DNA of 64,000 bases from Euglena gracilis (Eukaryota), in assembly GCA_039621445.1 (NCBI GenBank), contig CP154954.1, positions 35,201,703-35,265,702 of the forward strand, read 5' to 3'. Positions 6,001 to 26,255 of the stretch are shown in pieces. Each line of letters starts with the position of its first letter. Position 1 is the stretch's first letter. The notes under the pieces were generated by a model. That model had not been told where the DNA came from. It saw nothing but the letters and a program-made list of their open reading frames with translations, and did not search any database. The position numbers were made by a program, and so were the translations under genes.

Positions 6001-9000
6001 TCAGGGGACCCGTTGGTTTCATGAGTGTCGTGGTTTAATGGTAGAAAAAACATGCAGCCAGAAGGTTGGTTGCAAGAAATGAGCACATTTAGATGGGTGC
6101 ATTTGACCATTCCGGGGGACATTTACCAGGTCAGCCCAGATTACCATGTAAAAATGGACCAAATTGGGCCTTACTCCGAGTAACCGAATGGGTGTTCCAG
6201 GAGGCCTCCAAAGTCAGGGGGCCTCTTGGTTTCATGATTGTCGTGGTTTAATGGTAAGAAAAACATGCAGCCGGAAGGTTGGTTGCAAGAAATGAGCACA
6301 TTTAGATGGGTGCATTCGACCATTCCGGGGGACATTTACCAGGTCAGCCCAGGTTACCATGTAAAAATGGACCAAATGGGACCTTATTCCGAGTAACCGA
6401 ATGGGTGTTCCAGGAGGCCTCCAAAGTCAAGGGACCCGTTGGTTTCACGATTGTCGTGGTTTAATGGAAAGAAAAACATGCAGTGGGTGTTGGTTGCAAG
6501 AAATGAGCAGATTTAGATGGGTGCATTCGACCATTCCGGGGGACATTTACCAGGACAGCCCAGGTTACCATGTAAAAATGGACCAAATTGGGCCTTACTC
6601 CGAGTAACCGAATGGGTGTTCCAGGAGGCCTCCAAAGTCAAGGGACCCGTTGGTTTAATGATTGTCGTGGTTTAATGGTAAGAAAAACACGCAGCCGGAA
6701 GGTTGGTTGCAAGAAATGAGCACATATAGATGGGTGCATTCGACCATTCCGGGGGACATTTACCAGGTCAGCCCAGGTTACCATGTAAAAATGGACCAAA
6801 TTGGACCGTACTCCGAGTTACCGAATGGGTGTTCCAGGAGGCCTCCAAAGTCAGGGGACCCGTTGGTTTCATGATTGTCGTGGTTTAATGGTAAAGAAAA
6901 CATGCAGCCGGAAGGTTGGTTGCAAGAAATGAGCAGATTTAGATGGGTGCATTCGACCATTCCGGGGGACATTTACCAGGTCAGCCCAGGTTACCATGTA
7001 AAAATGGACCAAATTGGGCCGTACTCCGAGTTACCGAATGGGTGTTCCAGGAGGCCTCCAAAGTCAGGGGGCCCCTTGGTTTCACGATTTTCGTGGTTTA
7101 ATGGTAAGAAAAACATGCAGCGGGAATGTTGGTTGCAAGAAATGAGCAGATTTAGATGGGTGCATTTGACCATTCCGGGGGACATTTACCAGGTCAGCCC
7201 AGATTACCATGTAAAAATGGACCAAATTGGACCTTACTCCGAGTAACCGAATGGGTGTTCCAGGAGGCCTCCAAAGTCAGGGGGCCCCTTGGTTTCATGA
7301 TTGTCGTGGTTTAATGGTAAGAAAAACATGCAGCCGGAAGGTTGGTTGCAAGAAATGTGCACATTTAGATGGGTGCATTCGACCATTCCGGGGGACATTT
7401 ACCAGGTCAGCCCAGGTTACCATGTAAAAATGGACCAAATGGGGCCGTACTCTGAGTAACCAAATGGGTGTTCCAGGAGGCCTCCAAAGTCAGGGGACCC
7501 GTTGGTTTCATGAGTGTCGTGGTTTAATGGTAGAAAAAACATGCAGCCAGAAGGTTGGTTGCAAGAAATGAGCACATTTAGATGGGTGCATTTGACCATT
7601 CCGGGGGACATTTACCAGGTCAGCCCAGATTACCATGTAAAAATGGACCAAATTGGGCCTTACTCCGAGTAACCGAATGGGTGTTCCAGGAGGCCTCCAA
7701 AGTCAGAGGGCCCCTTGGTTTCATGATTGTCGTGGTTTAATGGTAAGAAAAACATGCAGCCGGAAGGTTGGTTGCAAGAAATGTGCACATTTAGATGGGT
7801 GCATTCGACCATTCCGGGGGACATTTACCAGGTCAGCCCAGGTTACCATGTAAAAATGGACCAAATTGGGCCTTACTCCGAGTAACCGAATGGGTGTTCC
7901 AGGAGGCCTCCAAAGTCAAGGGACCCGTTGGTTTCACGATTTTCGTGGTTTAATGGTAAGAAAAACATGCAGCGGGAATGTTGGTTGCAAGAAATGAGCA
8001 GATTTAGATGGGTGCATTTGACCATTCCGGGGGACATTTACCAGGTCAGCCCAGGTTACCATGTAAAAATGGACCAAATTGGGCCGTACTCCGAGTAACC
8101 GAATGGGTGTTCCAGGAGGCCTCCAAAGTCAGGGGACCCGTTGGTTTCACGATTGTCGTGGTTTAATGGAAAGAAAAACATGCAGCGGGTGTTGGTTGCA
8201 AGAAATGAGCAGATTTAGATGGGTGCATTCGACCATTCCGGGGGACATTTACCAGGTCAGCCCAGGTTACCATGTAAAAATGGACCAAATTGGGCCTTAC
8301 TCCGAGTAACCGAATGGGTGTTCCAGGAGGCCTCCAAAGTCAAGGGACCCGTTGGTTTAATGATTGTCGTGGTTTAATGGTAAGAAAAACATGCAGCCGG
8401 AAGGTTGGTTGCAAGAAATGAGCACATTTAGATGGGTGCATTCGACCATTCCGGGGGACATTTACCAGGTCAGCCCAGGTTACCATGTAAAAATGGACCA
8501 AATTGGGCCGTACTCCGAGTAACCGAATGGGTGTTCCAGGAGGCCTCCAAAGTCAGGGGACCCGTTGGTTTCATGATTGTCGTGGTTTAATGGTAAGAAA
8601 AACATGCAGCCGGAAGGTTGGTTGCAAGAAATGAGCAGATTTAGATGGGTGCATTCGACCATTCCGGGGGACATTTACCAGGTCAGCCCAGGTTACCATG
8701 TAAAAATGGACCAAATTGGGCCTTACTCCGAGTAACCGAATGGGTGTTCCAGGAGGCCTCCAAAGTCAGGGGGCCCGTTGGTTTCACGATTTTCGTGGTT
8801 TAATGGTAAGAAAAACATGCAGCGGGAATGTTGGTTGCAAGAAATGAGCAGATTTAGATGGGTGCATTCGACCATTCCGGGGGACATTTACCAGGTCAGC
8901 CCAGTTTACCATGTAAAAATGGACCAAATTGGGCCTTACTCCGAGTAACCGAATGGGTGTTCCAGGAGGCCTCCAAAGTCAGGGGACCCGTTGGTTTCAT

Positions 9001-12000
9001 GATTGTCGTGGTTTAATGGTAAGAAAAACATGCAGCCGGAAGGTTGGTTGCAAGAAATGAGCACATTTAGATGGGTGCATTCGACCATTCCGGGGGACAT
9101 TTACCAGGTCAGCCCAGGTTACCATGTAAAAATGGACCAAATGGGGCCTTACTCCGAGTAACCGAATGGGTGTTCCAGGAGGCCTCCAAAGTCAAGGGAC
9201 CCGTTGGTTTCACGATTTTCGTGGTTTAATGGTAAGAAAAACATGCAGCGGGAATGTTGGTTGCAAGAAATGAGCAGATTTAGATGGGTGCATTCGACCA
9301 TTCCGGGGGACATTTACCAGGTCAGCCCAGGTTACCATGTAAAAATGGACCAAATTGGGCCTTACTCCGAGTAACCGAATGGGTGTTCCAGGAGGCCTCC
9401 AAAGTCAGGGGACCCGTTGGTTTCATGATTGTCGTGGTTTAATGGTAAGAAAAACACGCAGCCGGAAGGTTAGTTGCAAGAAATGAGCACATTTAGATGG
9501 GTGCATTCGACCATTCCGGGGGACATTTACCAGGTCAGCCCAGGTTACCATGTAAAAATGGACCAAATTGGGCCTTACTCCGAGTAACCGAATGGGTGTT
9601 CCAGGAGGCCTCCAAAGTCAGGGGACCCGTTGGTTTCATGATTGTCGTGGTTTAATGGTAAGAAAAACATGCAGCGGGAATGTTGGTTGCAAGAAATGAG
9701 CAGATTTAGATGGGTGCATTCGACCATTCCGGGGGACATTTACCAGGTCAGCCCAGGTTACCATGTAAAAATGGACCAAATGGGGCCGTACTCCGAGTAA
9801 CCGAATGGGTGTTCCAGGAGGCCTCCAAAGTCAGGGGACCCGTTGGTTTCATGATTGTCGTGGTTTAATGGTAAGAAAAACATGCAGCCGGAAGGTTGGT
9901 TGCAAGAAATGAGCAGATTTAGATGGGTGCATTCGACCATTCCGGGGGACATTTACCAGGTCAGCCCAGGTTACCATGTAAAAATGGACCAAATTGGGCC
10001 GTACTCCGAGTAACCGAATGGGTGTTCCAGGAGGCCTCCAAAGTCAGGGGGCCCCTTGGTTTCACTATTTTCGTGGTTTAATGGTAAGAAAAACATGCAG
10101 CGGGAATGTTGGTTGCAAGAAATGAGCAGATTTAGATGGGTGCATTTGACCATTCCGGGGGACATTTACCAGGTCAGCCCAGGTTACCATGTAAAAATGG
10201 ACCAAATGGGGCCGTACTCCGAGTAACCGAATGGGTGTTCCAGGAGGCCTCCAAAGTCAGGGGACCCGTTGGTTTCATGATTGTCGTGGTTTGATGGTAG
10301 GAAAAAACATGCAGCGGGAACGCTGGTTGCAAGAAATGAGCACATTTAGATGGGTGCATTCGACCATTCCGGGGGACATTTACCAGGTCAGCCCAGGTTA
10401 CCATGTAAAAATGGACCAAATTGGGCCTTACTCCGAGTAACCGAATGGGTGTTCCAGGAGGCCCCCAAAGTCAGGGGACCCGTTGGTTTCATGATTGTCG
10501 CTGTTTAAGGGTAAAAAAAACATGCAGCAGGAAGGTTGGTTGCAAGAAATGAGCAGATTTAGATGGGTGCATTCGACCATTCCGGGGGACATTTACCAGG
10601 TCAGCCCAGGTTACCATGTAAAAATGGACCAAATTGGGCCGTACTCCGAGTTACCGAATGGGTGTTCCAGGAGGCCTCCAAAGTCAGGGGGCCCCTTGGT
10701 TTCACTATTTTCGTGGTTTAATGGTAAGAAAAACATGCAGCGGGAATGTTGGTTGCAAGAAATGAGCAGATTTAGATGGGTGCATTCGACCATTCCGGGG
10801 GACATTTACCAGGTCAGCCCAGGTTACCATGTAAAAATGGACCAAATTGGGCCTTACTCCGAGTAACCGAATGGGTGTTCCAGGAGGCCTCCAAAGTCAG
10901 GGGACCCGTTGGTTTCATGATTGTCGTGGTTTAATGGTAAGAAAAACATGCAGCGGGTGTTGGTTGCAAGAAATGAGCAGATTTAGATGGGTGCATTCGC
11001 CCATTCCGGGGGACATTTACCAGGTCAGCCCAGGTTACCATGTAAAAATGGACCAAATGGGGCCGTACTCCGAGTAACCGAATGGGTGTTCCAGGAGGCC
11101 TCCAAAGTCAGGGGACTCGTTGGTGTCATGATTGTCGTGGTTTAATGGTAAGAAAAACATGCAGCCGAAAGGTTGGTTGCAAGAAATGAGCAGATTTAGA
11201 TGGGTGCATTCGATCATTCCGGGGGACATTTACCAGGTCAGCCCAGGTTACTATGCAAAAATGGACCAAATTGGGCCTTACTCCGAGTAACCGAATGGGT
11301 GTTCCAGGAGGCCTCCAAAGTCAGGGGACCCGTTGGTTTCATGATTGTCGTGGTTTAATGGTAAGAAAAACGTGCAACCGGAAGGTTGGTTGCAAGAAAT
11401 GAGCAGATTTAGATGGGTGCATTCGACCATTCCGGGGGACATTTACCAGGTCAGCCCAGGTTACCATGTAAAAATTGACCAAATTGTGCCTTACTCTGAG
11501 TAACCGAATGGGTGTTCCAGGAGGCCTCCAAAGTCAGGGGACCCGTTGGTTTCATGATTGTCGTGGTTTAATGGTAGGAAAAACATGCAGCCAAAAGGTT
11601 GGTTGCAAGAAATGAGCACATTTAGATGGGTGCATTCGACCATTCCGGGGGACATTTACCAGGTCAGCCCAGGTTACCATGTAAAAATGGACCAAATTGG
11701 GCCTTACTCCGAGTAACCGAATGGGTGTTCCAGGAGGCCTCCAAAGTCAGGGGACCCGTTGGTTTCATGATTGTCGTGGTTTAATGGTAAGAAAAACATG
11801 CAGCGCGAATGTTGGTTGCAAGAAATGAGCAGATTTAGATGGGTGCATTCGACCATTCCGGGGGACATTTACCAGGTCAGCCCAGGTTACCATGTAAAAA
11901 TGGACCAAATTGGGCCTTACTCTGAGTAACCGAATGGGTGTTCCAGGAGGCCTCCAAAGTCAGGGGACCCGTTGGTTTCATGATTGTCGTGGTTTAATGG

Positions 12001-14313
12001 TAAGAAAAACATGCAGCCGGAAAGTTGGTTGCAAGAAATGAGCAGATTTAGATGGGTGCATTCGACCATTCCGGGGGACATTTACCAGGTCAGCCCAGGT
12101 TACCATATAAAAATGGACCAAATTGGGCCTTACTCCGAGTTACCGAATGGGTGTTCCAGGAGGCCTCCAAAGTCAGGGGACCCGTTGGTTTCATGATTGT
12201 CGTGGTTTAATGGTAAGAAAAACATGCAGCCGAAAGGTTGGTTGCAAGAAATGAGCAGATTTAGATAGGTGCATTCGACCATTCCGGGGGACATTTACCA
12301 GGTCAGCCCAGGTTACCATGTAAAAATGGACCAAATTGGGCCTTACTCCGAGTAACCGAATGGGTGTTCCAGGAGGCCTCCAAAGTCAGGGGACCCGTTG
12401 GTTTCATGATTGTCGTGGTTTAATGGTAAGAAAAACATGCAGCCGAAAGGTTGGTTGCAAGAAATGAGCAGATTTAGATGGGTGCATTCGACCATTCCGG
12501 GGGACATTTACCAGGTCAGCCCAGGTTACCATGTAAAAATGGACCAAATTGGGCCTTACTCCGAGTAACCGAATGGGTGTTCCAGGAGGCCTCCAAAGTC
12601 AGGGGACCCGTTGGTTTCATGATTGTCGTGGTTTAATGGTAAAAAAACATGCAGCCGAAAGGTTGGTTGCAAGAAATGAGCAGATTTAGATAGGTGCATT
12701 CGACCATTCCGGGGGACATTTACCAGGTCAGCCCAGGTTACCATGTAAAAATGGACCAAATTGGGCATTACTCCGAGTAACCGAATGGGTGTTCCAGGAG
12801 GCCTCCAAAGTCAGGGGACCCGTTGGTTTCATGATTGTCGTGGTTTAATGGTAGAAAAAACATGCAGCGGGAATGTTGGTTGCAAGAAATGAGCACATTT
12901 AGATGGGTGCATTCGACCATTCCGGGGGACATTTACCAGGTCAGCCCCGGTTCCCATGTAAAAATGGACCAAATTGGGCCTTACTCCGAGTAACCGAATG
13001 GGTGTTCCAGGAGGCCTCCAAAGTCAGGGGACCCGTTGGTTTCATGATTGTCGTGGTGTAATGGTAGAAACAACATGCAGCGGGAATGTTGGTTGCAAGA
13101 AATGAGCACATTTAGATGGGTGCATTCGACCATTCCGGGGGACATTTACCAGGTCAGCCCAGGTTACCATGTAAAAATGGACCAAATTGGGCCTTACTCC
13201 GAGTAACCGAATGGGTGTTCCAGGAGGCCTCCAAAGTCAGGGGACCCGTTGGTTTCATGATTGTCGTGGTTTAATGGTAAGAAAAACATGCAGCGGGAAT
13301 GTTGGTTGCAAGAAATGAGCACATTTAGATGGGTGCATTCGACCATTCCGGGGGACATTTACCAGGTCAGCCCAGGTTACCATGTAAAAATGGACCAAAT
13401 TGGGCCTTACTCCGAGTAACCGAATGGGTGTTCCAGGAGGCCTCCAAAGTCAGGGGACCCGTTGGTTTCATGATTGTCGTGGTTTAATGGTAAGAAAAAC
13501 ATGCAGCCGAAAGGTTGGTTGCAAGAAATGAGCAGATTTAGATAGGTGCATTCGACCATTCCGGGAGACATTTACCAGGTCAGCCCAGGTTCCCATGTAA
13601 AAATGGACCAAATTGGGCCTTACTCCGAGTAACCGAATGGGTGTTCCAGGAGGCCTCCAAAGTCAGGGGACCCGTTGGTTTCATGATTGTCGTGGTTTAA
13701 TGGTAAGAAAAATATGCAGCCGAAAGGTTGGTTGCAAGAAATGAGCAGATTTAGATAGGTGCATTCGACCATTCCGGGAGACATTTACCAGGTCAGCCCA
13801 GGTTACCATGTAAAAATGGACCAAATTGGGCCTTACTCCGAGTAACCGAATGGGTGTTCCAGGAGGCCTCCAAAGTCAGGGGACCCGTTGGTTTCATGAT
13901 TGTCGTGGTTTAATGGTAAGAAAAATATGCAGCCGAAAGGTTGGTTGCAAGAAATGAGCAGATTTAGATAGGTGCATTCGACCATTCCGGGAGACATTTA
14001 CCAGGTCAGCTCAGGTTACCATGTAAAAATAAACCACATTGGGCCGTACTCCGAGTAACCGAATGGGTGTTCCAGGAGGCCTCCAAAGTCAGGGGACACG
14101 TTGGTTTCATGATTGTCGTGGTTTAATGGTAGAAAAAACATGCAGCGGGAATGTTGGTTGGAAGAAATGAGCAGATTTAGATGGGTGCATTCGACCATTC
14201 CGGGGGACATTTACCAGGTCAGCCCAGATTACCACGTAAAAATGGACCAAATTGGGCCGTACTCCGAGTAACCGAATGGGTGTTCCAGGAGGCCTCCAAA
14301 GTCAGGGGACCCG
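1..14313 (+). repeat. 213-bp tandem satellite array, block A (~67 monomers)
   Basis: Unit AGTAACCGAATGGGTGTTCCAGGAGGCCTCC...GGGCCTTACTCCG recurs every ~213 bp with scattered SNPs and 1-2 bp indels; GGGGACATTT variant. Confidence 0.98.
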
Positions 14314-14746
14314 AGTGTACGTCCCACCCCGGCTTTTCTACTTACGCTTTCCTCCTGAAAAGCCCGCGGGGGGAGTAACAATAAAATTTGCTTCCCTTTT
14401 CCCCTTTTGAATGCAAAGCACACAAGCAGAAGAATTGGTGGGACCGCAGTCCCTTATATGATTGTGACTTTTGCTAATTCGAGCTTTGTAAAAGAAAGAA
14501 AGAAAACTTCTATTCAAATGGGACTTCGCCCTCAGAATTCTAAAACAGAATTGCAAAGCACCAAACCCTGTAACCTTGAATTAGGAACCAGTTACTTTCG
14601 CTAAGCTTTCGCTAGCTCTGAGATTCTCTCTTTGTCTTATGGTTTTAACCATGCCACTGTGTACGGCCCGGCCGTAGCCAGGTTGTAGGCCGTAGCCCCT
14701 TGTATCTGGTACACAGTGCCATGGCAGAATGGCTGCCTGGTACACA
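14314..14746 (-). repeat. 3' LTR (433 bp including terminal dinucleotides)
   Basis: Direct repeat of 26572-27004 with 8 substitutions by my count; minus strand reads TG-TGTAC...GTACA-CT. Confidence 0.96.
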
Positions 14747-14756
14747 TCCCCCTCCC
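14747..14756 (-). promoter_or_regulatory. Polypurine tract (plus-strand primer)
   Basis: Minus strand GGGAGGGGGA directly abuts the start of the 3' LTR. Confidence 0.85.
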
Positions 14757-15129
14757 AGGGCTCTGCCCGATTTCCCTTCTGGACCAGGCCAGTCGGGATG
14801 CCAGGCACAGTCCCAGGTTCAGGGAGACAGTACCAGGATACCATGGTCTGGTTCCCAATTACGGTTACCTTGTTTGGAGCACAAAGCGCAAAAGAATTCT
14901 GACGCGCATGCTGTGCTTTGTGCGTCTTCTTACTTGACACCGTAGTGTCCTTGTGGTCTTGAATCTTCGCGATCAACATGTTATCCACCGAACTTAAGGC
15001 GATTCCGCCATTGTGTCTTGGGACGGCGTTGAAGGCGATGATGAAATGCGTATACACGCTCGAGACTTCGCTCATTGTTTGGGACTACGCCCATTTCAGC
15101 CGAAGCTGATTGTACGAGACAGGAAACCC

Positions 15130-18100
15130 TCAACGTTTGTGGGTTTCCTTGAAGTACTCACCCATGTGTGGGTCTTGTACCAAGGTCATTTCGGTTGGAC
15201 GTAGGTCCAGGGTATCCTTGTCAGGATTATCCATGTCAATCCTGGGGATAACCCAACTTTTGACTTCTTGTATCTCCTTGGGAAGTTCTGTTCTGAGCGT
15301 TTCAGCTCGCTTGTGGAGGTAAATTTGCAAGTTTTCCCAGAAAACTCTCGGAAAAGTTGCAGGCCAAATGTAGTAGTTCCATCTTGGATGATTTGCTGGT
15401 ACCTGTGGTGGCATGCCAGGCATAGCGTTGAAATCAACGTTATGCACGCGGGATGCACAGGCACAACGGGTTATATGGGGTTTCAGAATGGAGCCAACCC
15501 ATTCTGAATAGTGTTCGTATCCATGTCGTTCTGGTGGGTACTCAGGGAGTAACCAACGTTGTGTGGTTTCAGAAACCGTTGAAGGCTTTGTAAACAGTGG
15601 GTAGATGACGCGTTTCCAGTCGTCATCATTGAACAGCAGGGGCAATCGCCCTTTTGTACATTCCACAGCCAGTCTGATTCCGCCGGAATCAGTTTGGAAG
15701 TCAAAGGCGATTCCGCCGCGCTCAAAAGCATCAGCTTTCTTGAAACTTTTGAATTGGTACATTTGTCGTTTCGATTTGTAGTAGTTCAGGAAATCTTCAA
15801 GAACTTCCTCGTTTCCGGGTACGATCTTGAGATTTCCGCCATCTGCGGGCAACCATATGTCTGCCCGTAGGCAGTTGACACAGAAAACTGGTACGTCACG
15901 GTCTCTGTCCTCTTCCGACCACCGGAAGTTGTTCAGTTTTCTCCAGGCAAGCATACAATCACCACAAATCAGGGCGGCTGTGTTTGGCACGAATTCATTG
16001 TGGTGAAAGTTCTTCCGTTTGTTGTCTGCATAACAGACATGCACAGCGGGCATGCTGTTACGGATGTTGTGACAGACTGTACAGAGCCAGGTTGTTTGGC
16101 CATTCGGCCGATTGTCAAACAGGAATGTCTCCCCAAGGTATTGGGCAAACACTCTTGGTGATCTGGCATTGTAGAATCGCCAAATATGTCGAACATAGTA
16201 ATTGTACCTCTCTTCGTTGAAGAAAAGCGGTTGAATCCACTTGTTCAACGGTTGTCCGCGTTCGCGGGCTAATTGTATGTTGACAATGCGTTCTCCGACG
16301 CTCGGCAGGTTGGAGATAATGTCTTCTTGCCAAAGTGTGGCATTATCATCAACCGGCATGTTGTCATCTTGTGAGGTCTCCGACGTTGTATCTTGTCGCG
16401 TTCTACCTCGAATGGTAGAAGTGACCCGGCTTTTCCCGGCCACTTCGGTATATGTCGGGGCTGGTGTGGTAGCGGCTGAGGTTTTCGCCTTCTTTCCTGA
16501 TTTGCTACCACTCCCAGGCGGTGGTGGTTTTGGCTCGTTGTGTCGCTCAGCCGGTTTGCATGGTTCTGCAAGCTGAGGTTTGGCTTTGGACTTACTGCCT
16601 TTCTCTTTCCGCTGCGGCGGAAGAGGGCGTTCTGCAGGCGATTTTGGAGCAGGTTTGGCTGTTGGTGTGGTAGTAGTAGTGGTATTAGATGGTACGTCAG
16701 CAGCCGTCGGTACCACCTGTTCAGGTGTGTGTACCACTACGGGTGTTGTGTCATGTGCTGGCGTTTGTTCGACCGTAGTCGATTCGGTTGTTGTCACCGC
16801 TTCGGGTGTTTGGACATCAACCGCGTCTGCGGCCAGTGTTGTTGTCGAAGCCGGAGCTTCTTGTGTGGTTGCTTCGCCAAGTCCCGTGTCGCGGGGACTT
16901 CGCGTCGAAGAAGAAGACCTCGATCGCACCATTGCAACCATCGAGGCTACGCCACTTCGGACGCTTCCGAGGACGCGTCCGGCGGCTCGTCCGACTTCGG
17001 GTGGTATAAGTATAAAGTCGTTCGGGTCTGTCCATCTTTGTGCCAGTTCTTCGTCAGTGATTTCTCTTACGACTGGCGCATTTGCCCAGACGGAAGGAAC
17101 CGTGTCTGACGAAGGTACAGGGGCTGTCGTGGTTTCGGAAGGCATTTCGGCCATTGTGGGAGTTGTAGGCCGTCCGGCCGTTGGAGGTTCCGTAGGTGTC
17201 TCCGGTTCTGTTTCTGGTAATGGTGTTTGTGGTCGTTGCTGAACAGGCGTTGTGGGTGGCACTTCGGCCCTTAGAGCCTGTTGTACGCTACCTTCTCCGC
17301 TTTCAGAATCCACAGATGCGGAGGAGACGGAGCGTGTACTGTGTTCATTGTCTGTCCCTTCTTCCATTTCCTCATCGCCGGATGATCCAGAAGAGGAAAC
17401 GGATGAAGAGTCCGAAGAGTGTACGGGTGTATGTTCCACCGGCATTGTAGGAGCAGGTGAAGGTGGAGGTAAACGTTCTTCGGAACGTTTAGTTGCAGGC
17501 TTCGCTGCTGTCTTCGTTGTTGTTGTTGTAGATGATGCAGCCATTATAGGTTGTTCAATTGCAGACTGCGCTGCTTCGGACTCCGCCGGCTGGGGTTCAG
17601 GTTCAGGTTCAGGAAGTCTTATACGTGGTCGCAGACGGAAGTTTTGCCATCCGACAAATCTGTTTCCTCCCAATCCGCGAGGAAGCCAGTCCAGTATCGG
17701 GATGGCCAACCCATCCTTATTTGTACGTTTGCCCTTGAAAAATGGGGCAAAGTCCTCTCTTCGGAGGGTTTCGCCAAACAGGCGTTTGATGTACTTCCGT
17801 TTTCCTTCTTCGTCCCATGCAGGTCGAAGAGGGAGGTATTCCTGTGGAAGTGGTTGTTTTGGGTTGAGTAGGTTGTCTGCGGCGTCTGCGCGCCTTGCGT
17901 ATTCGTCGGCTTCGCGACTTCCGTGAAACGTGGCATCACCCTCGTCAGGGTTACCAGGGTAATGCCAAGGTGCACGAGAGAGTAGGTCTGCGACTTTTTG
18001 AGTATGACCTGGTGTGTAAACTACCACCAGGTTGAACTGACTCAAAAATTCGTGCCAGCGGCATCTTCGGCCAACTGAGGACATGGCTTTGTTTAAGTCC

Positions 18101-19716
18101 TCGGTGTACCAGTGTTGGAGAGACTCGTGGTCTGTCAACACTAGTATTTGTACGAGTGAACTGGCGACCCAACTTCGGAATTTTTGTAGGATAAGGACAA
18201 TGGCATACGTCTCCTTTTCTCGTATGCTCCATTTGACTTGTCCTTTTCCGTCTTCACCTTGTAGCTTTCTGCTGAAGAATGCTACAGGGCGCAGTTCATT
18301 GGACGAATTATGTTGACTCAACACACCGCCGACAGCATAGTCGCTGCTGTCGACCTCCAGTACGTATGGTTTGTACGGGTCGGCAATGTCAAGCACAACA
18401 TTGTCCAACATCAGTTGTTTAATTGTCGTTAGCGATTCTCGCATTGTATCATCCCATTGTATCTTTGTATTGTCAGGAGCGCGATTTTTGAGTTGTCGCG
18501 TCAGTGGTACCGCGATTTTCGCGAAATCCTTCATGTAAATCGCGTAATACTGCGCTAAACCCAAAAATCCTTTTAAATGGGTGATTGTCTTGATGTTTTC
18601 AGGTGTCCACTTCTTTATAGCTTCGAGTTTGCTTGGAGATGCTCTCCTTTGTCCGTTATTAAGAATGTGTCCACAAAATTTTATCGTTTCGCGAAACAAA
18701 TGCATTTTCGCGCCTTTGACGAAAAGCAAGTGTTTTTGAAACGTTGTCAGTACGGATCGTATATCGCGGTAGTGAATATCAAGGATATCACTACCCGAAT
18801 TTGTAAGTGGAGGAGGTGTGCCTATCAGCACATCATCAATGTATACCATTGCGAATGGTAAATCTCGTAAAATCCATTGTATCATTCTTTGGAACATGGC
18901 TGGGCCATTCTTAACACCCATTGGTAACACCGTCCATTGGTAAACTCCATGGGAGGTTACAAATGCGGTGTATGGTTGTGAGTCAGGATGTAAGTGCATC
19001 TGGTGAAAACCATCCTCTAAGTCGAAAATGGACCAGAGGCGGTTTTCCGCTTGTTTTGTAATCAGGTCTTCAATAAGTGGTAACGGAAATGGATCGTCCT
19101 TTGTCTGTGAGTTTAAGTATCGGTAATCCAGTACAAGTCTCCACTTTTTCTGTCTAGAAGCATCGGGAGGCTTGGGTACAACAAAAGCTTGTGAGGTCCA
19201 CTCGCTTTTGGAGGGTATGATCCATTTTCGTTCAATCAGTTTTTCGATCATTGTATTGAGAGTTTCTTCTCTTTCGCCTGAACAGCGAAAGAATTTTCGG
19301 TGCATGGGCTGTGCACCTTCTTTGAGTTCGATTTTACAGACACCAAAAGGTCCGCGAATTGCAGGATCTATGTCATGGGCATAGATAGGATGTTCAAGAA
19401 CATCACTGAATTCGCGATTGATCTTTGTACACAGTTCCTGTGATTTGGGATGTTGACCACCGCTTTCTATCACTGCGGATAGTTGGTATGTTTGGTCTTT
19501 CTGACCTTTTTCCCGTAGGAATTTGTCATTGTGGTCAACGGTTCCGAATGCATCGAAGAAACAAACACGAAAAATGATTTCTTTCAATGGTGGTAACATG
19601 ACACCGCAAAAATCTTCAAACAATGGCGTGTCATTCGGTAAATCCCACCACTGAAAAGTGACATACGTCAATTGTTGGAACCATTCCGCTTCGGGATTTA
19701 TAGGAATGAGCAGCAC
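15130..19716 (-). CDS. pol: Pol polyprotein, main ORF: C-terminal half of adenine MTase, reverse transcriptase, RNase H, P/T/S/E-rich linker, RING-like Cys/His domain, unknown C-terminus
   Basis: RT motifs WRLVLDYRYLN, FDLEDGFHQ, LPMGVKNGP, VYIDDVLI; Ty3-type RNase H motifs EVDSSDYAVGGVL, EKETYA, TDHESL, ADLLSR. The frame is open upstream to ~19794 (LWLHPPLKLIP). Confidence 0.93.
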   Translation of the reverse strand: MLLIPINPEAEWFQQLTYVTFQWWDLPNDTPLFEDFCGVMLPPLKEIIFRVCFFDAFGTVDHNDKFLREKGQKDQTYQLSAVIESGGQHPKSQELCTKINREFSDVLEHPIYAHDIDPAIRGPFGVCKIELKEGAQPMHRKFFRCSGEREETLNTMIEKLIERKWIIPSKSEWTSQAFVVPKPPDASRQKKWRLVLDYRYLNSQTKDDPFPLPLIEDLITKQAENRLWSIFDLEDGFHQMHLHPDSQPYTAFVTSHGVYQWTVLPMGVKNGPAMFQRMIQWILRDLPFAMVYIDDVLIGTPPPLTNSGSDILDIHYRDIRSVLTTFQKHLLFVKGAKMHLFRETIKFCGHILNNGQRRASPSKLEAIKKWTPENIKTITHLKGFLGLAQYYAIYMKDFAKIAVPLTRQLKNRAPDNTKIQWDDTMRESLTTIKQLMLDNVVLDIADPYKPYVLEVDSSDYAVGGVLSQHNSSNELRPVAFFSRKLQGEDGKGQVKWSIREKETYAIVLILQKFRSWVASSLVQILVLTDHESLQHWYTEDLNKAMSSVGRRCRWHEFLSQFNLVVVYTPGHTQKVADLLSRAPWHYPGNPDEGDATFHGSREADEYARRADAADNLLNPKQPLPQEYLPLRPAWDEEGKRKYIKRLFGETLRREDFAPFFKGKRTNKDGLAIPILDWLPRGLGGNRFVGWQNFRLRPRIRLPEPEPEPQPAESEAAQSAIEQPIMAASSTTTTTKTAAKPATKRSEERLPPPSPAPTMPVEHTPVHSSDSSSVSSSGSSGDEEMEEGTDNEHSTRSVSSASVDSESGEGSVQQALRAEVPPTTPVQQRPQTPLPETEPETPTEPPTAGRPTTPTMAEMPSETTTAPVPSSDTVPSVWANAPVVREITDEELAQRWTDPNDFILIPPEVGRAAGRVLGSVRSGVASMVAMVRSRSSSSTRSPRDTGLGEATTQEAPASTTTLAADAVDVQTPEAVTTTESTTVEQTPAHDTTPVVVHTPEQVVPTAADVPSNTTTTTTPTAKPAPKSPAERPLPPQRKEKGSKSKAKPQLAEPCKPAERHNEPKPPPPGSGSKSGKKAKTSAATTPAPTYTEVAGKSRVTSTIRGRTRQDTTSETSQDDNMPVDDNATLWQEDIISNLPSVGERIVNIQLARERGQPLNKWIQPLFFNEERYNYYVRHIWRFYNARSPRVFAQYLGETFLFDNRPNGQTTWLCTVCHNIRNSMPAVHVCYADNKRKNFHHNEFVPNTAALICGDCMLAWRKLNNFRWSEEDRDRDVPVFCVNCLRADIWLPADGGNLKIVPGNEEVLEDFLNYYKSKRQMYQFKSFKKADAFERGGIAFDFQTDSGGIRLAVECTKGRLPLLFNDDDWKRVIYPLFTKPSTVSETTQRWLLPEYPPERHGYEHYSEWVGSILKPHITRCACASRVHNVDFNAMPGMPPQVPANHPRWNYYIWPATFPRVFWENLQIYLHKRAETLRTELPKEIQEVKSWVIPRIDMDNPDKDTLDLRPTEMTLVQDPHMGEYFKETHKR

Positions 19717-19955
19717 ACCGCGTGCTTGATCCCGAAGGATCTTGTCAACAACAAGAGGGATAAGTTTCAGAGGTGGATGTAGCCACAGACCACATCACCC
19801 CAAAACTTATCAAACGCATTTGTATGGCTTGACCAGTAATTGGGTAATCGAGAATGTGCCTTGGACGAAAATGCATCAATCTCCAATTGTAGGTCCATCG
19901 ACTTCGCGATTCGCGCGATTTTGGAAAACCAAATTTCCAAAATGCGGTATTGTCC
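19545..19955 (-). other. DIRS/Dam-like DNA N6-adenine methyltransferase domain, split by a -1 frameshift near 19790
   Basis: Joined translation: YRILEIWF..IDAFSSKAHSRLPNYWS..NAFDKFWGD(V/G)LWLHPPLKLIPLVVDKILRDQARGVLLIPINPEAEWFQQL..WWDLP. This follows the DIRS MT pattern IDLFAS..DAF..W..xxPP..LI..VLxK..LIxPxW..WF. Confidence 0.8.
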
Positions 19956-21482
19956 AAAATTGAACGCATTCCAAATGCGGTTCGCGAAAACTGTCGCGGT
20001 TTCAGTCCTGTGGAGGGCTGAAACGCAGTTTACCGAGCCACATCGGTAATGCGGTGTGTCCGAAGACACTTCACCAGGCATTGTACCAAGTGTATCACAC
20101 GCATCAGGTGTATTGTCGAAAGTGTGATTGTTATTGGCATTCTGCCACTTGTATGCAGGCGTATTGGAGGGATTGGCATTCTGCCATTCGGGGTCATAGA
20201 GATTGGCTTTCTGCCCTTGTAAGTCCTCCAGCGCGGTTCTCGCGATTCCAAACAGGGACGCGATTCCGCGTTTGTCCAATTGTCGATGTACTTCAACACA
20301 CAACGGGTAACAACCCGGTGTGTTGTGTTCTCGTTCAGCGTTCCGGGTAAACTCAGTACCGATTTCGGTACCAAGTGTACTCTGGTTGTTGAGTAAGGCG
20401 ATTAGTTTGGAAGGTTCAACAATACATCCACAGTCAAAATCAGGTTGTGTGGAAATTCTCCGGCATTGTGCGCATTGGAAGGAAGTGTCGGTCTGGTAGT
20501 GCATGTCGGTCATGTGTGGTGTGTGCTTGGGGGTGTTGGAAGTTGTAGCTGCTGGGGGGTGTACAGGGGTGTCCGAAATCGACACACCTGGTGGAAAACG
20601 TAAAAGTTGTGCAGCTGGGCGGCTACTCGACACCGAAATTTCTTCAGGCCTTTGGGCTTTCGCCTTGGAACCCAGTGAAACGTGGGGGGTTAAGCTACTC
20701 GCTTTCCCTACCGCATGGGAAACGTGCGGTAAAAGTGTAGTGGGTAGGGGGGCAGCTTTCTCTTTACCCCTAGGGTAGGAAACGGTGTTTTCGGTTGTAG
20801 AAAACGTTGTGGCAAGGCGGGGGGACATCTGGGTAGATGTCTTGGGGGAGAAATTCGGTGGTGTGGGTTGTGTGCGTGAAGTAGTGCGCAAACCGAGGGA
20901 GGGGCAATCCACAACAAGGCGGTTCTGACGCAAGAACGGAAAACCCAAAATTACGTCAGAGCCGCGAATACCCGATTCGTAACTCCAGGTACCCAGAAAA
21001 TTTTGTATATGGGGGGGTTGTGAGTGGTGCTTGGGGATGATGGGGAGGAGTATGTCCAAAAAGCATCCCAAGTCACCACCGCACATGGGGCTGTTGTCAG
21101 CAGTCATAATTTTGATGGGGTACTTGGCTTTCACCAAGAGGGAGTTGGGAATTAATCCCGTTCGGAAGAGAAGGGGAATTCGACACCCTGTGTCGACCAA
21201 AATTTTGCATTTGGTGGAAAAATTTTGTGTTCGGATTTCCGCTTGGACCAAAAGTTCCATGGGGGGTACGCAAAGTGCAGGATCCGGTGTAAAATTGTTG
21301 TCTCTCCAACTGTTCCAGGATCCCGTTCCTACTTTGCTCAGCATTCCAGGCAGAAATTTGGAGTGGGGGGTGGGGGACCCGAAAATTTTCCGGGTACCGA
21401 CCAAAAAGGCAGATGGGCAGGGAAAGTAAGGTTGATCAAGTCCTACTTCCGGCTGTTCATCAGCCCAGAGGTCCGTGCCCAC
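19767..21482 (-). CDS. pol: Pol N-terminal part: retropepsin-like aspartic protease, linker, N-terminal half of MTase
   Basis: ILVDTGC catalytic motif (~21186-21194) and downstream DVILGFPFL. The frame is open from 21497, directly after the gag UAG. Confidence 0.88.
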   Translation of the reverse strand: MGTDLWADEQPEVGLDQPYFPCPSAFLVGTRKIFGSPTPHSKFLPGMLSKVGTGSWNSWRDNNFTPDPALCVPPMELLVQAEIRTQNFSTKCKILVDTGCRIPLLFRTGLIPNSLLVKAKYPIKIMTADNSPMCGGDLGCFLDILLPIIPKHHSQPPHIQNFLGTWSYESGIRGSDVILGFPFLRQNRLVVDCPSLGLRTTSRTQPTPPNFSPKTSTQMSPRLATTFSTTENTVSYPRGKEKAAPLPTTLLPHVSHAVGKASSLTPHVSLGSKAKAQRPEEISVSSSRPAAQLLRFPPGVSISDTPVHPPAATTSNTPKHTPHMTDMHYQTDTSFQCAQCRRISTQPDFDCGCIVEPSKLIALLNNQSTLGTEIGTEFTRNAEREHNTPGCYPLCVEVHRQLDKRGIASLFGIARTALEDLQGQKANLYDPEWQNANPSNTPAYKWQNANNNHTFDNTPDACDTLGTMPGEVSSDTPHYRCGSVNCVSALHRTETATVFANRIWNAFNFGQYRILEIWFSKIARIAKSMDLQLEIDAFSSKAHSRLPNYWSSHTNAFDKFWGDVVCGYIHL

Positions 21483-21500
21483 AGACCTCGGGCTCCCCTA
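21462..21500 (-). promoter_or_regulatory. Putative gag-pol stop-codon readthrough signal (UAG plus stem-loop)
   Basis: TAG (21500-21498) is in frame with pol, followed by GGG then AGCCC-GAGGTC-TGT-GGGC-ACG-GACCTC-T-GGGCT (about 14-bp stem). Confidence 0.7.
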
Positions 21501-21529
21501 CTCCAGGTCCGATTCAGCACTTCGGCTGT

Positions 21530-22327
21530 TTATCGTTTTCTTGTGTGAGTAGATAGCGCGCAATGCGCGGACCGCATTGCGGTCATCCTCCAACGAGGAT
21601 TCAGAGTTCTCATCCCCCTCCCTGCCCGAAGCCGGGGTTCCCTCCTCCAAAGAGGAGATTTTGAACCCGACCTTGTGTTTGTTGTTGTGTTTTGTATCAT
21701 TGTAGTGACGTTGGTTCGGGCGGGAGAGCGAGAACGGTAACATTTGGACGAATGGTGGTTATGTGATCCACAAAGGGAACACTTTTGTCGGTTTTGTGAT
21801 TTTTGTCGGTTTTGTGATGGGCTTTCACCCCTTGGAGGTCTTGGTGAACGGAATCCCGTTCGACCACGGTTCTTGTTGTAATCCGGTTTCCCGGATGACG
21901 ATCGCGAAGAAGATGATCCACTTCGCGAACGTGATCGCGATGAGTCGCGATTTGTATCACGTTTGTAAGGGGGTCGGGGTGATCGACCACGAGGTGCGAT
22001 TGCGTCCGCGGCCGCGGAAAGGAGGACGGGCCTGTTGTCGATAACCCGAGGATTGTGATGGTCCAGATTTGTGTGAAAACCCAGAGGAGCGGAGCTCCGC
22101 GAGGATTGTGAACCCCTTGGGCTCTGATTCCGCTTTCGCGTATCAGGATGGGGGCAGTCTCGGGACATATGCCCCGATTTGTTGCACAAAAAGCAAGTTT
22201 TGTCCGAAGATTGGTCAGATGAGCGCGGATAGCGCGTTTTTGTATCACCCTTTGGAGAGGTTGTGTGTTTTCCATATCCCCGTGGGGATTTTGGAGAAGA
22301 ATCTTTTGTAGGGCACTTACCGTACCG
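21530..22327 (-). CDS. gag: Gag nucleocapsid segment: two CCHC zinc knuckles flanking an RS-rich region
   Basis: CFLCNKSGHMSRDC and CSLCGSHNHHSSKC both fit CX2CX4HX4C; SRSRSRS tract between them. Confidence 0.85.
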   Translation of the reverse strand, partial: RYGKCPTKDSSPKSPRGYGKHTTSPKGDTKTRYPRSSDQSSDKTCFLCNKSGHMSRDCPHPDTRKRNQSPRGSQSSRSSAPLGFHTNLDHHNPRVIDNRPVLLSAAADAIAPRGRSPRPPYKRDTNRDSSRSRSRSGSSSSRSSSGKPDYNKNRGRTGFRSPRPPRGESPSQNRQKSQNRQKCSLCGSHNHHSSKCYRSRSPARTNVTTMIQNTTTNTRSGSKSPLWRREPRLRAGRGMRTLNPRWRMTAMRSAHCALSTHTRKR

Positions 22328-23244
22328 CTAGGGAGACCAGCGGTAGGGTGGTGGGTATAAGCCGATTGTATCTGTCCCAAAAGTTGTGAGAGTTTCATTT
22401 GTTTGGAAACATAGTTCCACCGTTGTTCAAGTGTGAGTTTGTTGTCCGCGAGTTCCTCGCGGTGAATGTCTTTGATAATTGTAGGAATGAAATGGACGAG
22501 AACCGCATCGAATTGTTCTTTCATTTGGTTCTCTCCCAGTTCATCAACCTCAGAAGCCAATCCCAACCATTTGGAATACCAAAGGTCGATTGACTTCCAT
22601 TTTCTGTCACTGGGCGCGAATTGCCGCCATTTTTTCTCAAGCGTAATTCGCGAAATTAGGCTTGAACAAGTTGACGCATATTGGTCAACCAGTTCATCAA
22701 AAGTTATCCGATTCCGGATCACAAGTTGTCGGGCGCGTTCTTTTTCTTCCTTGGGGAGGCAATCAATGAATTCCATCTTGATTACCTCAGGGTTCCCGTC
22801 TTGGGTTGGACCCTTCAAGTCCCAGTAGTATGTCCAATCGCGCCAAAATTGTTTCCAGGTTGTGGGATCTCCGTCCCATTGTGGCTTTACCTTGTTGGCA
22901 ATTGTAATTGTACCTTTGAAATCGCGTTGTGGACCACGATTTCCATCGTAATTGTTGGAGTAAGGTTGTTGTGGTGGCATGCGCGAATGCGCATCCAGGA
23001 TGGTACTCATGGTACCATAGGTACCATGGGGGTTAGGTACATCGCGGTTCCGCGAATTGTATGGATGTGTGTCGCGATTCCGCGATTCGGATTGTAGGGG
23101 GTCGCGATTCCGCGATTCGGGGTGTGGTAACATACCAGGGGGGTAGGAATCCCGTTGTTCACCCGGGAATCGGGGAACCGCGGTAAATTCCGTGTTTCGC
23201 ATTCGCGATTCATGGCCAATACCCGGGGTAGGGGTATGGCTCAT
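21697..23244 (-). CDS. gag: Gag capsid-like segment (true frame probably ends near 22305)
   Basis: PQWDGDPTTWKQFWRDW...FIDCLP...ITFDELVDQY resembles retrotransposon Gag capsid (PxFxG..W..F); located just upstream of the knuckles. Confidence 0.7.
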   Translation of the reverse strand: MSHTPTPGIGHESRMRNTEFTAVPRFPGEQRDSYPPGMLPHPESRNRDPLQSESRNRDTHPYNSRNRDVPNPHGTYGTMSTILDAHSRMPPQQPYSNNYDGNRGPQRDFKGTITIANKVKPQWDGDPTTWKQFWRDWTYYWDLKGPTQDGNPEVIKMEFIDCLPKEEKERARQLVIRNRITFDELVDQYASTCSSLISRITLEKKWRQFAPSDRKWKSIDLWYSKWLGLASEVDELGENQMKEQFDAVLVHFIPTIIKDIHREELADNKLTLEQRWNYVSKQMKLSQLLGQIQSAYTHHPTAGLPSGTVSALQKILLQNPHGDMENTQPLQRVIQKRAIRAHLTNLRTKLAFCATNRGICPETAPILIRESGIRAQGVHNPRGAPLLWVFTQIWTITILGLSTTGPSSFPRPRTQSHLVVDHPDPLTNVIQIATHRDHVREVDHLLRDRHPGNRITTRTVVERDSVHQDLQGVKAHHKTDKNHKTDKSVPFVDHITTIRPNVTVLALPPEPTSLQ

Positions 23245-23252
23245 ACCGCGAA

Positions 23253-24650
23253 TCAGTCCCGATTCGCGAATTTTTCTTGTTGTAAAACAAGAGGATTGGC
23301 GGTTTTTGCGGGGAAAACCGGTTCCTCATCCGAAGATTCACCCTTGTGCGGGGGAATCTTGATTTGTGGTATAAACGGGCGATTGTAATCGTGATTGTAG
23401 GCATGTGCATGATCATGTGCATCCGTGGATGCTTGTAGGGCATGCGCATCCGAAGATGCTTGTATGGGTGCGCATACTGCGCTTTTGGAAGTATTGGCAT
23501 CCAACACATCGCGAATTTGATGCACAAAGTCGCGAGTTGGATGTCGGGCATCCGAAGATGCTTCGGTTGGTGCGCGAAAAGCGCGTTGTGAGCTGGAAGT
23601 TGCAATTTGACCACCGAAAACGGTGTTTTCATGGCCAAAGTGCGGGGGGTTGCGGGATTTTGCATGAATCTCATCCAAACTCAATGCAAAATCTTGTATG
23701 CTTTGTTCCAATGAACCAACCACTTGGAAAAGGTCCGAAATTCGTTCAACATCACCCTGCAAACGCTTAATACGTTTGCGGTATGAGGGTAGTTCATCCA
23801 AAAGTGGTAATTTGTCAGCAATGGATTCAAAATTCGCGGAAAGTTTTGGAAAAGTGGTGTCCAAAAATTGGACCCGCTTAACCAAAGTTTCCATTGCGGT
23901 TGTAAGTGCGTTTAACCGATTCTCGGTTTGTGGGGTTTGTGGGGTTGTGGTACCCAACGTGGGTTGGGGTACCCTTACCGCATTTTCAGCGGTTTTATCA
24001 ACCATCATTGTAGAAAGTCGGTTCTCCAACACCGAAACTTGTTGTTTTAGTGTGAGAACTTGTTGAGTGACCGAATTTTCGGTCCTCATCAAGGTTTCAC
24101 AAAATTCTTGTACACTATCTTGATTTTTCGCAAGCATTTGGTCATAAAATGTGCGAAAATCAAGGGGTAGTTCGACTTCGCGAACCGTTTGTCCATCCGA
24201 GGATGGTTGGAGTCCGGAGACCCTTGTAGAAAGTGTTTGTACGCGTTTTTGTAAATGGGAAGTGGTGGATTGTAAGGTTTTGTGTTGGGTATTCAAATCC
24301 GCAAGCGCGGTTTCGATGCCGGTGATATCCGGAATTGATGTTTGAATACCGTTGCACCGTTTGTGCAAATCCGCAAATGCAGATTCGATTTTGTTCACAT
24401 CAGATTGTAATTGATTGTGCAAATCGGTGATAGTGGTTCGTAGTGCTCCCATACTGGGATTTTTTGTGGAAGTTTCCGCAAAGCGGCGTTGTAAGTCCCC
24501 AATTGCAGTTTGTAGTCCCGAAACATCCGCAAAAGCGGTTTTCAGGTCTGCAAACGCAATTTGGAGGTCCGCATTCGCGGTTTGGATGGTAGTTATGACC
24601 GTTTCTCGGTCTTGGAGTTCCGCATTCGCGGTTTGTAAGCTAAGAATCAC
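23253..24650 (-). CDS. Long coiled-coil segment of ORF1/Gag
   Basis: 465-aa ORF with heptad-like repeats (LQTANAELQ, IQTANADLQ, FADLKTAFAD); frame stays open upstream to ~24790. Confidence 0.7.
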   Translation of the reverse strand: MILSLQTANAELQDRETVITTIQTANADLQIAFADLKTAFADVSGLQTAIGDLQRRFAETSTKNPSMGALRTTITDLHNQLQSDVNKIESAFADLHKRCNGIQTSIPDITGIETALADLNTQHKTLQSTTSHLQKRVQTLSTRVSGLQPSSDGQTVREVELPLDFRTFYDQMLAKNQDSVQEFCETLMRTENSVTQQVLTLKQQVSVLENRLSTMMVDKTAENAVRVPQPTLGTTTPQTPQTENRLNALTTAMETLVKRVQFLDTTFPKLSANFESIADKLPLLDELPSYRKRIKRLQGDVERISDLFQVVGSLEQSIQDFALSLDEIHAKSRNPPHFGHENTVFGGQIATSSSQRAFRAPTEASSDARHPTRDFVHQIRDVLDANTSKSAVCAPIQASSDAHALQASTDAHDHAHAYNHDYNRPFIPQIKIPPHKGESSDEEPVFPAKTANPLVLQQEKFANRD

Positions 24651-25131
24651 CGCATCGCGGGATTGGAGTTCCGCCGTAGCGGTTTGTAGCGCATTGGACG
24701 CAGTTTCAAATTTTTGTATGTCGTTTTGCCACTTTTCATGGAGGAAATCTTGCCGATGCGCGATTTCCTGCCACTTGAGTGTGCAATGTGGTCAAATTGT
24801 GGGAAACTTCACCGCATTTGCAGGAAGTTTGTTCCAAACGAGCAATCCGCTCTTCCAGTTGTTGAGCAAAAGCTCTTTGTACATAGTTTTCGCGTATTTG
24901 TGTAAAATTTTGATGAAAACTTGCGTTTTCATCACCCAAACGCAAAATGCGTTCCTGGGATTGTTGTACAACATTGGATAGGGTTGAGAAGTGCTCATAT
25001 GAGACATATGAGCCAAGTTCCGCACCCGTAGGCGCTTTATCCCGTTGTTGTAGGCGGGACTGCATTTCTTGCATTGTATAAGAGAATTTTTTGAGCTGAG
25101 TGGACAATTGTTGTAAACTTTGTTGTAAATG

Positions 25132-26085: not shown

Positions 26086-26107
26086 CCCTGTTGGTGGGGG
26101 GGTGCCA

Positions 26108-26255
26108 CCGAAGCGGCTTGGGCATCCGCCCCTTGTATAGAAAAATTTTCCACCGCAGAAGCGGCGTGGGCATTCGCCCCTTGTGAAGGAAAATTTTCTG
26201 CCGCAAAAGCGGTTTGGGCCTCCGCCCCTTGTGAAGAAAAATTTTCTGTCGCCGT
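26108..26255. repeat. ~48-bp imperfect tandem repeat (3 copies) inside ORF1
   Basis: CGCCCCTTGT..AAAATTTTC..CCG recurs; encodes ENFxxQGAxAxxAxAx three times. Confidence 0.85.

Follow-up and report, generated by a model that had tools for sequence, protein, structure and literature searches.

An LTR retrotransposon of Euglena gracilis with an in-frame foreign segment in place of integrase

A 12.7-kb long terminal repeat (LTR) retrotransposon interrupts a satellite array in the window analysed here, a 64,000-nucleotide stretch of Euglena gracilis DNA (contig CP154954.1, positions 35,201,703 to 35,265,702). Its longest reading frame joins a gypsy-type reverse transcriptase (RT) and RNase H to 910 codons of foreign sequence, ending in a predicted zinc-binding domain of an orphan family, at the place where its relatives encode a linker, integrase and chromodomain. 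The element cannot make integrase and is, for that reason, non-autonomous for integration. We consider it probable that it is a cargo-carrying derivative of a euglenid-type DAM-chromovirus, in which integrase was exchanged in frame and which is mobilised in trans; this mobilisation, the way in which the cargo was captured and any role of the tail are what we infer from the comparisons below.

The in-frame tail in place of integrase

The longest frame of the element is an open reading frame (ORF) that runs from stop to stop over 15130-19794 on the minus strand, and its coding part, 15133-19794, specifies a protein of 1554 residues (P0001). By Pfam, RVT_1 spans residues 206-378 and the RNase H models span 447-587, the gypsy-type order of RT followed by RNase H, and 947 further residues continue in frame after the motif ADLLSR (residues 602-607; 17974-17991), close to the 950 or so counted in the first-pass annotation, which had been made from the letters of the window alone. 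The motif itself is private to this copy: at its third position (residue 604, 17984) the relatives have Pro (ADPLSR), as seen in all nine of those showing the motif (P0011-P0019) and in 24 contigs of the DNA sequencing run X1.

Of the 154 stop-to-stop ORFs that reach 45 amino acids (aa) or more on both strands of 14200-27100, 150 were searched with Pfam (E ≤ 0.01), the other four lying at or beyond the outer edges of the element. Across these ORFs, in six frames, there was no match to rve, Integrase_H2C2, Phage_integrase, GIY-YIG or any other endonuclease family, and none to the chromodomain (PF00385); the only matches were to RVT_1, the RNase H models and one CCHC knuckle, together with sub-threshold coiled-coil and chance matches. 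This hidden Markov model scan, which had been proposed with the first-pass annotation, bears out its claim that the element lacks an integrase, a chromodomain and a tyrosine recombinase. When ten RT relatives (P0011-P0020) were compared with the whole window by tblastn, nothing resembling an integrase or a chromodomain was found in any frame, and the chromodomain ends of P0012 and P0013 had no match. On this result, the idea that the tail is old integrase DNA read out of frame was rejected.

These relatives come from a search with residues 1-720 of P0001, which returned 284 proteins at E ≤ 1e-10. The best match, P0011 (1208 aa), is identical at 628 of 642 residues (98%) and the second, P0012 (1066 aa), at 469 of 519 (90%); both alignments end at residue 644, the last of '...ADAADNLL', which lies at 17863 and places the breakpoint at 17862/17863. 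The BLASTP and tblastn matches of P0011, P0012, P0014, P0015 and P0016 all stop at 17863, and the tblastn matches of the other five stop between 17653 and 17833. Past the breakpoint, P0011 continues with Integrase_H2C2 (1074-1134) up to the end of its contig, and P0012 with H2C2 (626-686), rve (707-804), SH3_Tf2-1 (923-974) and Chromo (1005-1040), an architecture shared by P0013-P0018 at 64-73% identity. In eight relatives (P0011-P0018) the zinc finger and integrase core directly follow the shared post-RNase H stretch, and Integrase_H2C2 and/or rve is listed for nine of the ten closest (P0011-P0020), in keeping with the earlier expectation that integrase should lie after RNase H; the exception is P0019, in which the sequence past RNase H is apparently in the wrong frame.

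Because the matches of the sister elements end at residue 644 and the sisters then carry an integrase that the window lacks, residues 645-1554 (15133-17862) occupy the position of the linker, integrase and chromodomain. The first-pass claim that integrase had been replaced therefore holds; of its further claim that the foreign part begins after ADLLSR, the in-frame tail stands but the boundary does not, since foreign sequence starts at residue 645 (17862) and residues 608-644 belong to the conserved post-RNase H stretch common to the integrase-bearing relatives. A faint likeness of residues 650-700 to the linker of the sisters was rejected as not above shuffles: a profile built from the linkers of eight sisters scored -2.6 bits against window residues 650-759, below shuffled controls, and phmmer found no relative of residues 645-740 among the integrase-bearing sisters. 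With no integrase remnant on either side, the tail is a replacement and not a nested insertion.

The foreign segment stays in frame with RT-RNase H for 910 codons after residue 644. A stop-free run of this length has a probability of ~6e-18 from base composition, none of 500 shuffles remained open, and each of the five alternative frames contains 15-45 stops over this DNA, so the frame is not open by chance. The tail, which ends with its own stop codon, is placed after RNase H and ahead of the polypurine tract and 3' LTR; neither a poly(A) remnant nor a spliced-leader sequence was seen at its junctions, and no tail-like sequence was found elsewhere in the window. Its composition agrees with the first-pass description of a P/T/S/E-rich stretch followed by a globular region, in that residues 741-1149, read as a disordered linker of about 410 residues, are rich in P, T, S, E and A (0.47-0.75 per 40-aa window, with an island of ordinary composition at 903-950) and residues 1150-1554, the 405-aa globular part, have an ordinary make-up with much Cys and Trp.

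Other added domains were observed among the RT relatives: a cytosine DNA methyltransferase (PF00145) in P0055, P0056, P0081, P0093 and P0103, a dUTPase (PF00692) in P0035, P0045, P0071 and P0085, and a macro domain (PF01661) in P0129. In this RT group, the 3' terminus of pol seems prone to gaining extra modules. The identity of P0011 to the window is uneven, at 97.8% over the C-terminal part of DAM, RT and RNase H and 90.5% over the protease-DAM part (P0011 residues 1-344 against 19788-20828), which suggests mosaic ancestry or recombination among subfamilies.

The orphan zinc-binding domain

In an exhaustive search, the final 404 residues of P0001 retrieved nine homologues (E 1.5e-46 to 2.2e-4; 27-47% identity), all of them fragments of 123-380 aa, although a word-indexed protein search with the tail at near and shorter lengths had given no match. 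Two of the nine are Euglena gracilis transcripts (EukProt) and the others are environmental sequences. Taken with the likeness of the element to DAM-LTR retrotransposons (below), these transcripts point to a euglenid host. In the alignment of these homologues, eight positions predicted to be zinc ligands are conserved (CxxC, HxC, CxxC and CxxC, at 15871-16083 of the window), spaced in the tail as CxxC-x12-HxC-x22-CxxC-x24-CxxC, and a C-terminal block, PGMPPQ..NHP..N..IWP, is conserved at 15352-15420. A low-complexity lead-in precedes the domain in P0002, P0004 and P0008 as well, and P0004/P0006 and P0005/P0010 resemble multi-copy variants of each other. The stop of the tail coincides with the end of P0006, an alignment of ends that suggests that the native C-terminus came along with the captured segment.

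None of the ten family members matched Pfam, and this includes nuclease, recombinase, DNA-binding and RING families. No match to the orphan domain was found in the PDB (best E 0.1 with phmmer and 0.44 with a profile), and Atlas gave no usable match for the tail of the window, with only RING-type leads of 0.80-0.82 for P0004, below the bar of 0.9. In RING fingers, ligands 4 and 5 are separated by a gap of 2-3. A RING-type zinc finger was rejected for this domain on account of a gap of 22 at that place, the absence of RING matches across the ten members and the sub-threshold Atlas lead. A tyrosine-recombinase reading of 'HITR...NHPRWNYY' was also rejected, as the homologues do not conserve its HITR residues. 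AlphaFold2 models of the 404-aa domain (10 sequences) and of its last 206 aa (5 sequences) reached a predicted local distance difference test (pLDDT) score of 40.0 and 39.4, too low for fold comparison. A hidden integrase-like fold in the tail is still formally compatible with these models, which give no fold, and produced no sequence signal in Pfam or the PDB.

The domain was also looked for in other settings. A metagenome locus scan with a narrower domain alignment gave 184 pattern matches, none of which was confirmed, a scan of viral contigs with the tail gave no match, and neither did tblastn against a phage collection. A metagenome locus scan with the junction as query returned only two distant loci (L001 and L002, 39% identity), both without the tail, and a scan of viral contigs with P0012 gave no match.

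Layout, family placement and other copies

The features of the element, all on the minus strand, are as follows.

14314-14746, minus strand: 3' LTR, 433 bp, an ungapped match to 26572-27004.
14747-14756, minus strand: polypurine tract GGGAGGGGGA, directly upstream of the 3' LTR, from sequence.
14757-15132, minus strand: untranslated spacer after the tail, including its stop codon (15130-15132); a 167-aa ORF at 14584-15084 has no Pfam match.
15133-16347, minus strand: globular part of the tail (P0001 residues 1150-1554), the orphan family, with the zinc module at 15871-16083 and the C-terminal block at 15352-15420.
16348-17574, minus strand: P/T/S/E/A-rich low-complexity part of the tail (residues 741-1149), from composition in 40-aa windows.
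17575-17862, minus strand: first 96 residues of the tail (645-740), of ordinary composition and with no detectable relative.
17863-17991, minus strand: ADLLSR and the conserved post-RNase H stretch (residues 602-644), from BLASTP and tblastn ends and alignment.
18034-18456, minus strand: RNase H (residues 447-587); Pfam RT_RNaseH E 2.4e-23, RT_RNaseH_2 E 3e-23.
18661-19179, minus strand: RT (residues 206-378), with YIDD at 18832-18843; Pfam RVT_1 E 1.3e-26.
19636-19964, minus strand: putative DIRS-type DAM-like domain, split by a frame break near 19788, from Pfam Dam (PF05869) in relatives and alignment.
20931-21203, minus strand: aspartic protease motifs ILVDTGC ... ILGFPFL (VDTG motif at 21183-21203), from translation only, with no Pfam match.
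21740-22201, minus strand: nucleocapsid part of gag with two CCHC zinc knuckles; Pfam zf-CCHC E 3.5e-6, the second knuckle from translation.
22202-26310, minus strand: upstream ORFs in several frames (gag-like, a 512-aa coiled-coil ORF at 23256-24791, and 45-51-bp tandem repeats), with only sub-threshold coiled-coil Pfam matches.
26560-26571, minus strand: primer-binding site TGGTAGCAGATT, adjoining the 5' LTR, from sequence; the cognate tRNA was not matched.
26572-27004, minus strand: 5' LTR, 433 bp, a direct repeat of the 3' LTR.

The insert (14314-27004) is identified as an LTR retrotransposon by its direct repeats, primer-binding site and polypurine tract, of which the latter two are both intact. 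The two 433-bp LTRs differ at eight mismatches without gaps (98.2% identity), and in the orientation of the element they start with TGTGTAC and end with GTACA(CT), ends of the TG..CA type. On either side, the 213-bp satellite fills almost the entire remainder of the window (1-14313 and 27005-64000; unit identity 93-97%), its orientation switching near 31919/31929, between 35760 and 35917, and near 61168/61183. Neither the satellite nor the window as a whole gave any Rfam match, and a tRNA scan found no tRNA genes. In the 5' third, 22900-26560, the element departs from what is usual in gypsy elements: besides the 512-aa coiled-coil ORF, there is a 392-aa ORF (25861-26252) packed with 45-48-bp tandem repeats, as well as additional 21-51-bp repeats, and no Pfam family was found for any of these ORFs. 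The abundance of this third in run X1 is equal to that of the rest.

With gag-CCHC, protease, a putative DAM domain, RT and RNase H, the element belongs to the chromovirus-like 'DAM-LTR' kind of Ty3/gypsy elements. The stretch between the protease motifs and RT aligns with the Pfam Dam domain (PF05869) of the relatives, which scores 33.5 bits in P0020 (E 4e-8, above the cut-off), E 7e-6 in P0019, and 19.6 bits over residues 312-383 of P0011 (E 7.8e-4, below the cut-off of 28.1). The two DAM pieces of the window have no Pfam match at E ≤ 0.1 because the domain is split by the frame break, and their alignment to the relatives is clear. Motif IV reads HPPL in the window and HPPL, HPPA, HPPS, NPSL, NPPI or NPPL across its clade, while NPPF or NPPY is kept in most of the domain-bearing relatives that are more distant. 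Judged by sequence, the methyltransferase may be inactive in the clade of the window.

Other copies of the element were compared over 14750-26560 in the DNA run X1 and in the RNA-labelled runs X15, X16 and X17; two of the three RNA labels are guesses, and these runs are not taken as showing transcription. Bins 16720-17507 are uncovered in X15 and were not used as evidence, and neither were the small word shares of runs X18-X20. In X1, 46,461 contigs were placed and 30 of 30 bins were covered, the tail included. Tail positions 17379-17842 each lie under 30-50 distinct contigs, a depth that is not to be equated with copy number, and this coverage means that the tail is not private to the present copy. 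A tail restricted to this copy, which had been named with the first-pass annotation as a possible outcome, is contradicted both by these contigs and by the nine protein homologues.

Among the 27 best-supported substitutions in P0001 (711 further differences lie beyond these), 13 of 19 are synonymous in DAM, RT and RNase H and three of eight in the tail, all eight tail variants falling within residues 651-906, inside the first 262 residues of the foreign segment and in its disordered part. The synonymous share of 13 in 19 indicates that RT is under purifying selection among copies. The suggestion that the long open frame reflects 'recent origin or selection' thus fares unevenly: a recent origin fits the LTR identity of 98.2%, as expected of a young copy, and selection is not shown by the listed tail variants.

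This copy is nevertheless partly decayed, despite its young LTRs. Upstream of RT, the reading frames contain several breaks, with gag, protease and the DAM region split. Other copies differ in length by 1-2 bases near 19787, 21721, 22301, 23271 and 24769; the window holds the minority length state at four of these five sites and the majority state at 19787. P0011 reads through the DAM frame break near 19788. Within the tail, no majority length difference was found in the comparison of X1 and X15-X17. Pieces of the tail that are 99% identical occur in a leaf-litter metatranscriptome, which hints at transcription. Near-identical pieces of the element were also observed in runs labelled with three other organisms (X15-X18), as well as in that metatranscriptome; the host, or close relatives with this element family, is present in several kinds of sample.

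Modes of movement and comparison with known systems

In the reading as a DAM-chromovirus derivative mobilised in trans, the linker, H2C2 zinc finger, DDE core, SH3 and chromodomain were swapped for the 910-codon segment after residue 644, most likely through a template switch, or through recombination, while a co-packaged RNA was being reverse transcribed. The position of the tail without an integrase remnant fits such a replacement through reverse transcription better than it fits a nested insertion. The cargo could have come from a host gene or from a piece of some other mobile element. The cDNA made from the RNA of the element would most likely be inserted by the integrase of sisters that are 90-98% identical in RT-RNase H, and the element would depend on these sisters as a defective, cargo-carrying retrovirus depends on its helper. 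Supply of integrase in trans is proposed because the LTRs, primer-binding site and polypurine tract have been kept, integrase is absent, and the sisters encode one.

Several observations weigh against this account. The tail is absent from all 120 RT relatives listed, the fusion was not seen in the public protein sets, and P0011 and P0012 derive from metagenome contigs without LTRs. Among the X1 contigs listed, none is shown bridging 17862; that the fused form, as distinct from the tail alone, is multi-copy is likely, within the limits set by contig depth and by the junction. The DAM frame break near 19788 is found in most of the X1 depth, and RT-RNase H-tail may therefore go untranslated in many copies. 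At the insertion site there is no 4-6-bp target-site duplication, the flanks ..GGGGACCCG (left end) and CTTACTCC.. (right start) sharing no repeat, and the flanks at 14284-14313 and 27005-27034 are out of register by 57 or 156 bp in the 213-bp satellite. A missing duplication together with shifted flanks is not the trace of a clean integrase-made insertion; the missing duplication may be due to exchange within the array at a later time, to recombination of two copies, or to insertion free of integrase.

The last of these possibilities leads to the alternative that integrase-less copies enter by host recombination, through single-strand annealing or homologous recombination at copies or repeats. 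We regard it as unlikely. The state of the insertion site speaks for it, and such a route is documented for Tf1 and for integrase-less HIV-1 (PMC11042837). However, later unequal exchange in the satellite array can erase a duplication, the primer-binding site and polypurine tract have, by eye, no clear counterpart in the flanks, an inefficient pathway would hardly give the very high abundance seen in X1, and one copy is insufficient to decide. The tail might instead be a working substitute for integrase and chromodomain, a lineage-specific zinc-binding module on a long, flexible linker that tethers the cDNA or inserts it by a new route, in which case the element would be autonomous and selected; this we hold to be quite improbable. 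The conservation of the domain family (27-47% identity, eight fixed zinc ligands and a Trp/Pro-rich block), the lead-in shared with P0002, P0004 and P0008, the apparent multi-copy pairs P0004/P0006 and P0005/P0010, the in-frame joining of 910 open codons to RNase H and the abundance of the tail in X1 would all be expected of such a substitute. Yet no nuclease, recombinase or DNA-binding family was detected for it (Pfam in ten of ten members, PDB, and Atlas beyond the RING-type lead of 0.82), RT and the domain are not joined in any long protein of the collections searched, the listed tail variants are synonymous less often (3/8) than those in RT-RNase H (13/19), and sisters diverged by only 2-10% in RT keep a normal integrase, so that the swap looks recent rather than long-held. 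We would give equally little credence to the more general proposal that the orphan module is a euglenid retroelement unit that replaces integrase and chromodomain, acting by chromatin or satellite tethering or by recruitment of a host pathway; were it true, an LTR retrotransposon lineage would persist without a DDE integrase of its own.

Least probable, in our assessment, is that a single rearrangement, or a chimera made in assembling this repeat-rich region, produced the RT-tail junction, the multi-copy signal of the tail stemming from a separate repeat family that only donated the piece. The lack of a listed contig shown across 17862 and the absence of the fusion from the public proteins searched would fit this explanation, as would the fact that a window made up nearly entirely of satellite is difficult to assemble. 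Against it, frame and orientation carry over the junction, and 910 codons stay open beyond it; each of the variants at 17806, 17819 and 17842, only 20-56 bp from the junction, is found on 42-50 X1 contigs of ~200 bases; and the tail fills precisely the interval from RNase H to the polypurine tract and 3' LTR, without a trace of integrase to its left or right.

The in-frame union of RT-RNase H with an orphan zinc-binding domain in a euglenid DAM-chromovirus appears to be new: no description was found in a literature search that lay outside the supplementary tables of preprint 10.64898/2026.05.21.726589. It looks like a clean example from nature of integrase being lost from an LTR retrotransposon by an in-frame swap for a foreign ORF, in an element that is still apparently abundant. 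If confirmed genome-wide, it would represent a helper-and-parasite pair within the euglenid DAM-LTR elements, a dated capture of coding sequence by a protist retroelement, and the first genomic context for an orphan zinc-binding family known from fragments only. If the tail were functional in transposition, it would amount to a new mode of insertion or of target choice among LTR elements.

The features common to this element and the DAM-LTR elements are the LTRs, gag-CCHC, protease, a putative Dam-like domain beside RT, and gypsy-type RT-RNase H. DAM-carrying Ty3/gypsy elements of this name are described in the preprint, among them a Euglena gracilis group with chromodomains and, in some members, a cytosine methyltransferase (10.64898/2026.05.21.726589). 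Rve and a chromodomain are present in the closest relatives of the element, some of which have PF05869 Dam or PF00145 DNMT as well, whereas this copy has a 910-codon unrelated segment instead of integrase and chromodomain, and its motif IV is HPPL and not NPPF or NPPY. DIRS-like elements are similar in their gypsy-related RT-RNase H and in the putative Dam-like domain, but the present element has a protease and a CCHC gag; its classification as a DIRS-like tyrosine-recombinase retroelement was rejected, given the lack of Phage_integrase, the absence of inverted repeat pairs (0 found) and of split repeats, and the plain direct LTRs. Tf1 can still insert as an LTR element without integrase activity (PMC11042837), and the missing target-site duplication of this copy is reminiscent of that route, in contrast to which no homology of the flanks to the primer-binding site or polypurine tract was seen here.

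The element also resembles the non-autonomous LTR retrotransposons, in that it retains cis elements, lacks an essential pol function and has a near-identical integrase-bearing relative. LARD, TRIM, BARE-2 and Dasheng/RIRE2 all need an autonomous partner; their interiors are mostly non-coding or decayed and their copy number is high. The present element differs from these in keeping RT-RNase H and a long intact foreign ORF in frame with it. Defective LTR elements and retroviruses with captured sequence are well known, replication-defective carriers of cargo including the acutely transforming retroviruses and maize Bs1, and gene capture has reportedly occurred in endogenous retroviruses too. Although the cargo here is of no known family and has no known link to a host phenotype, the likeness to transducing retroviruses and Bs1 extends to a foreign coding segment in place of the element's own genes, its probable acquisition by template switching, and the helper that its spread would need.

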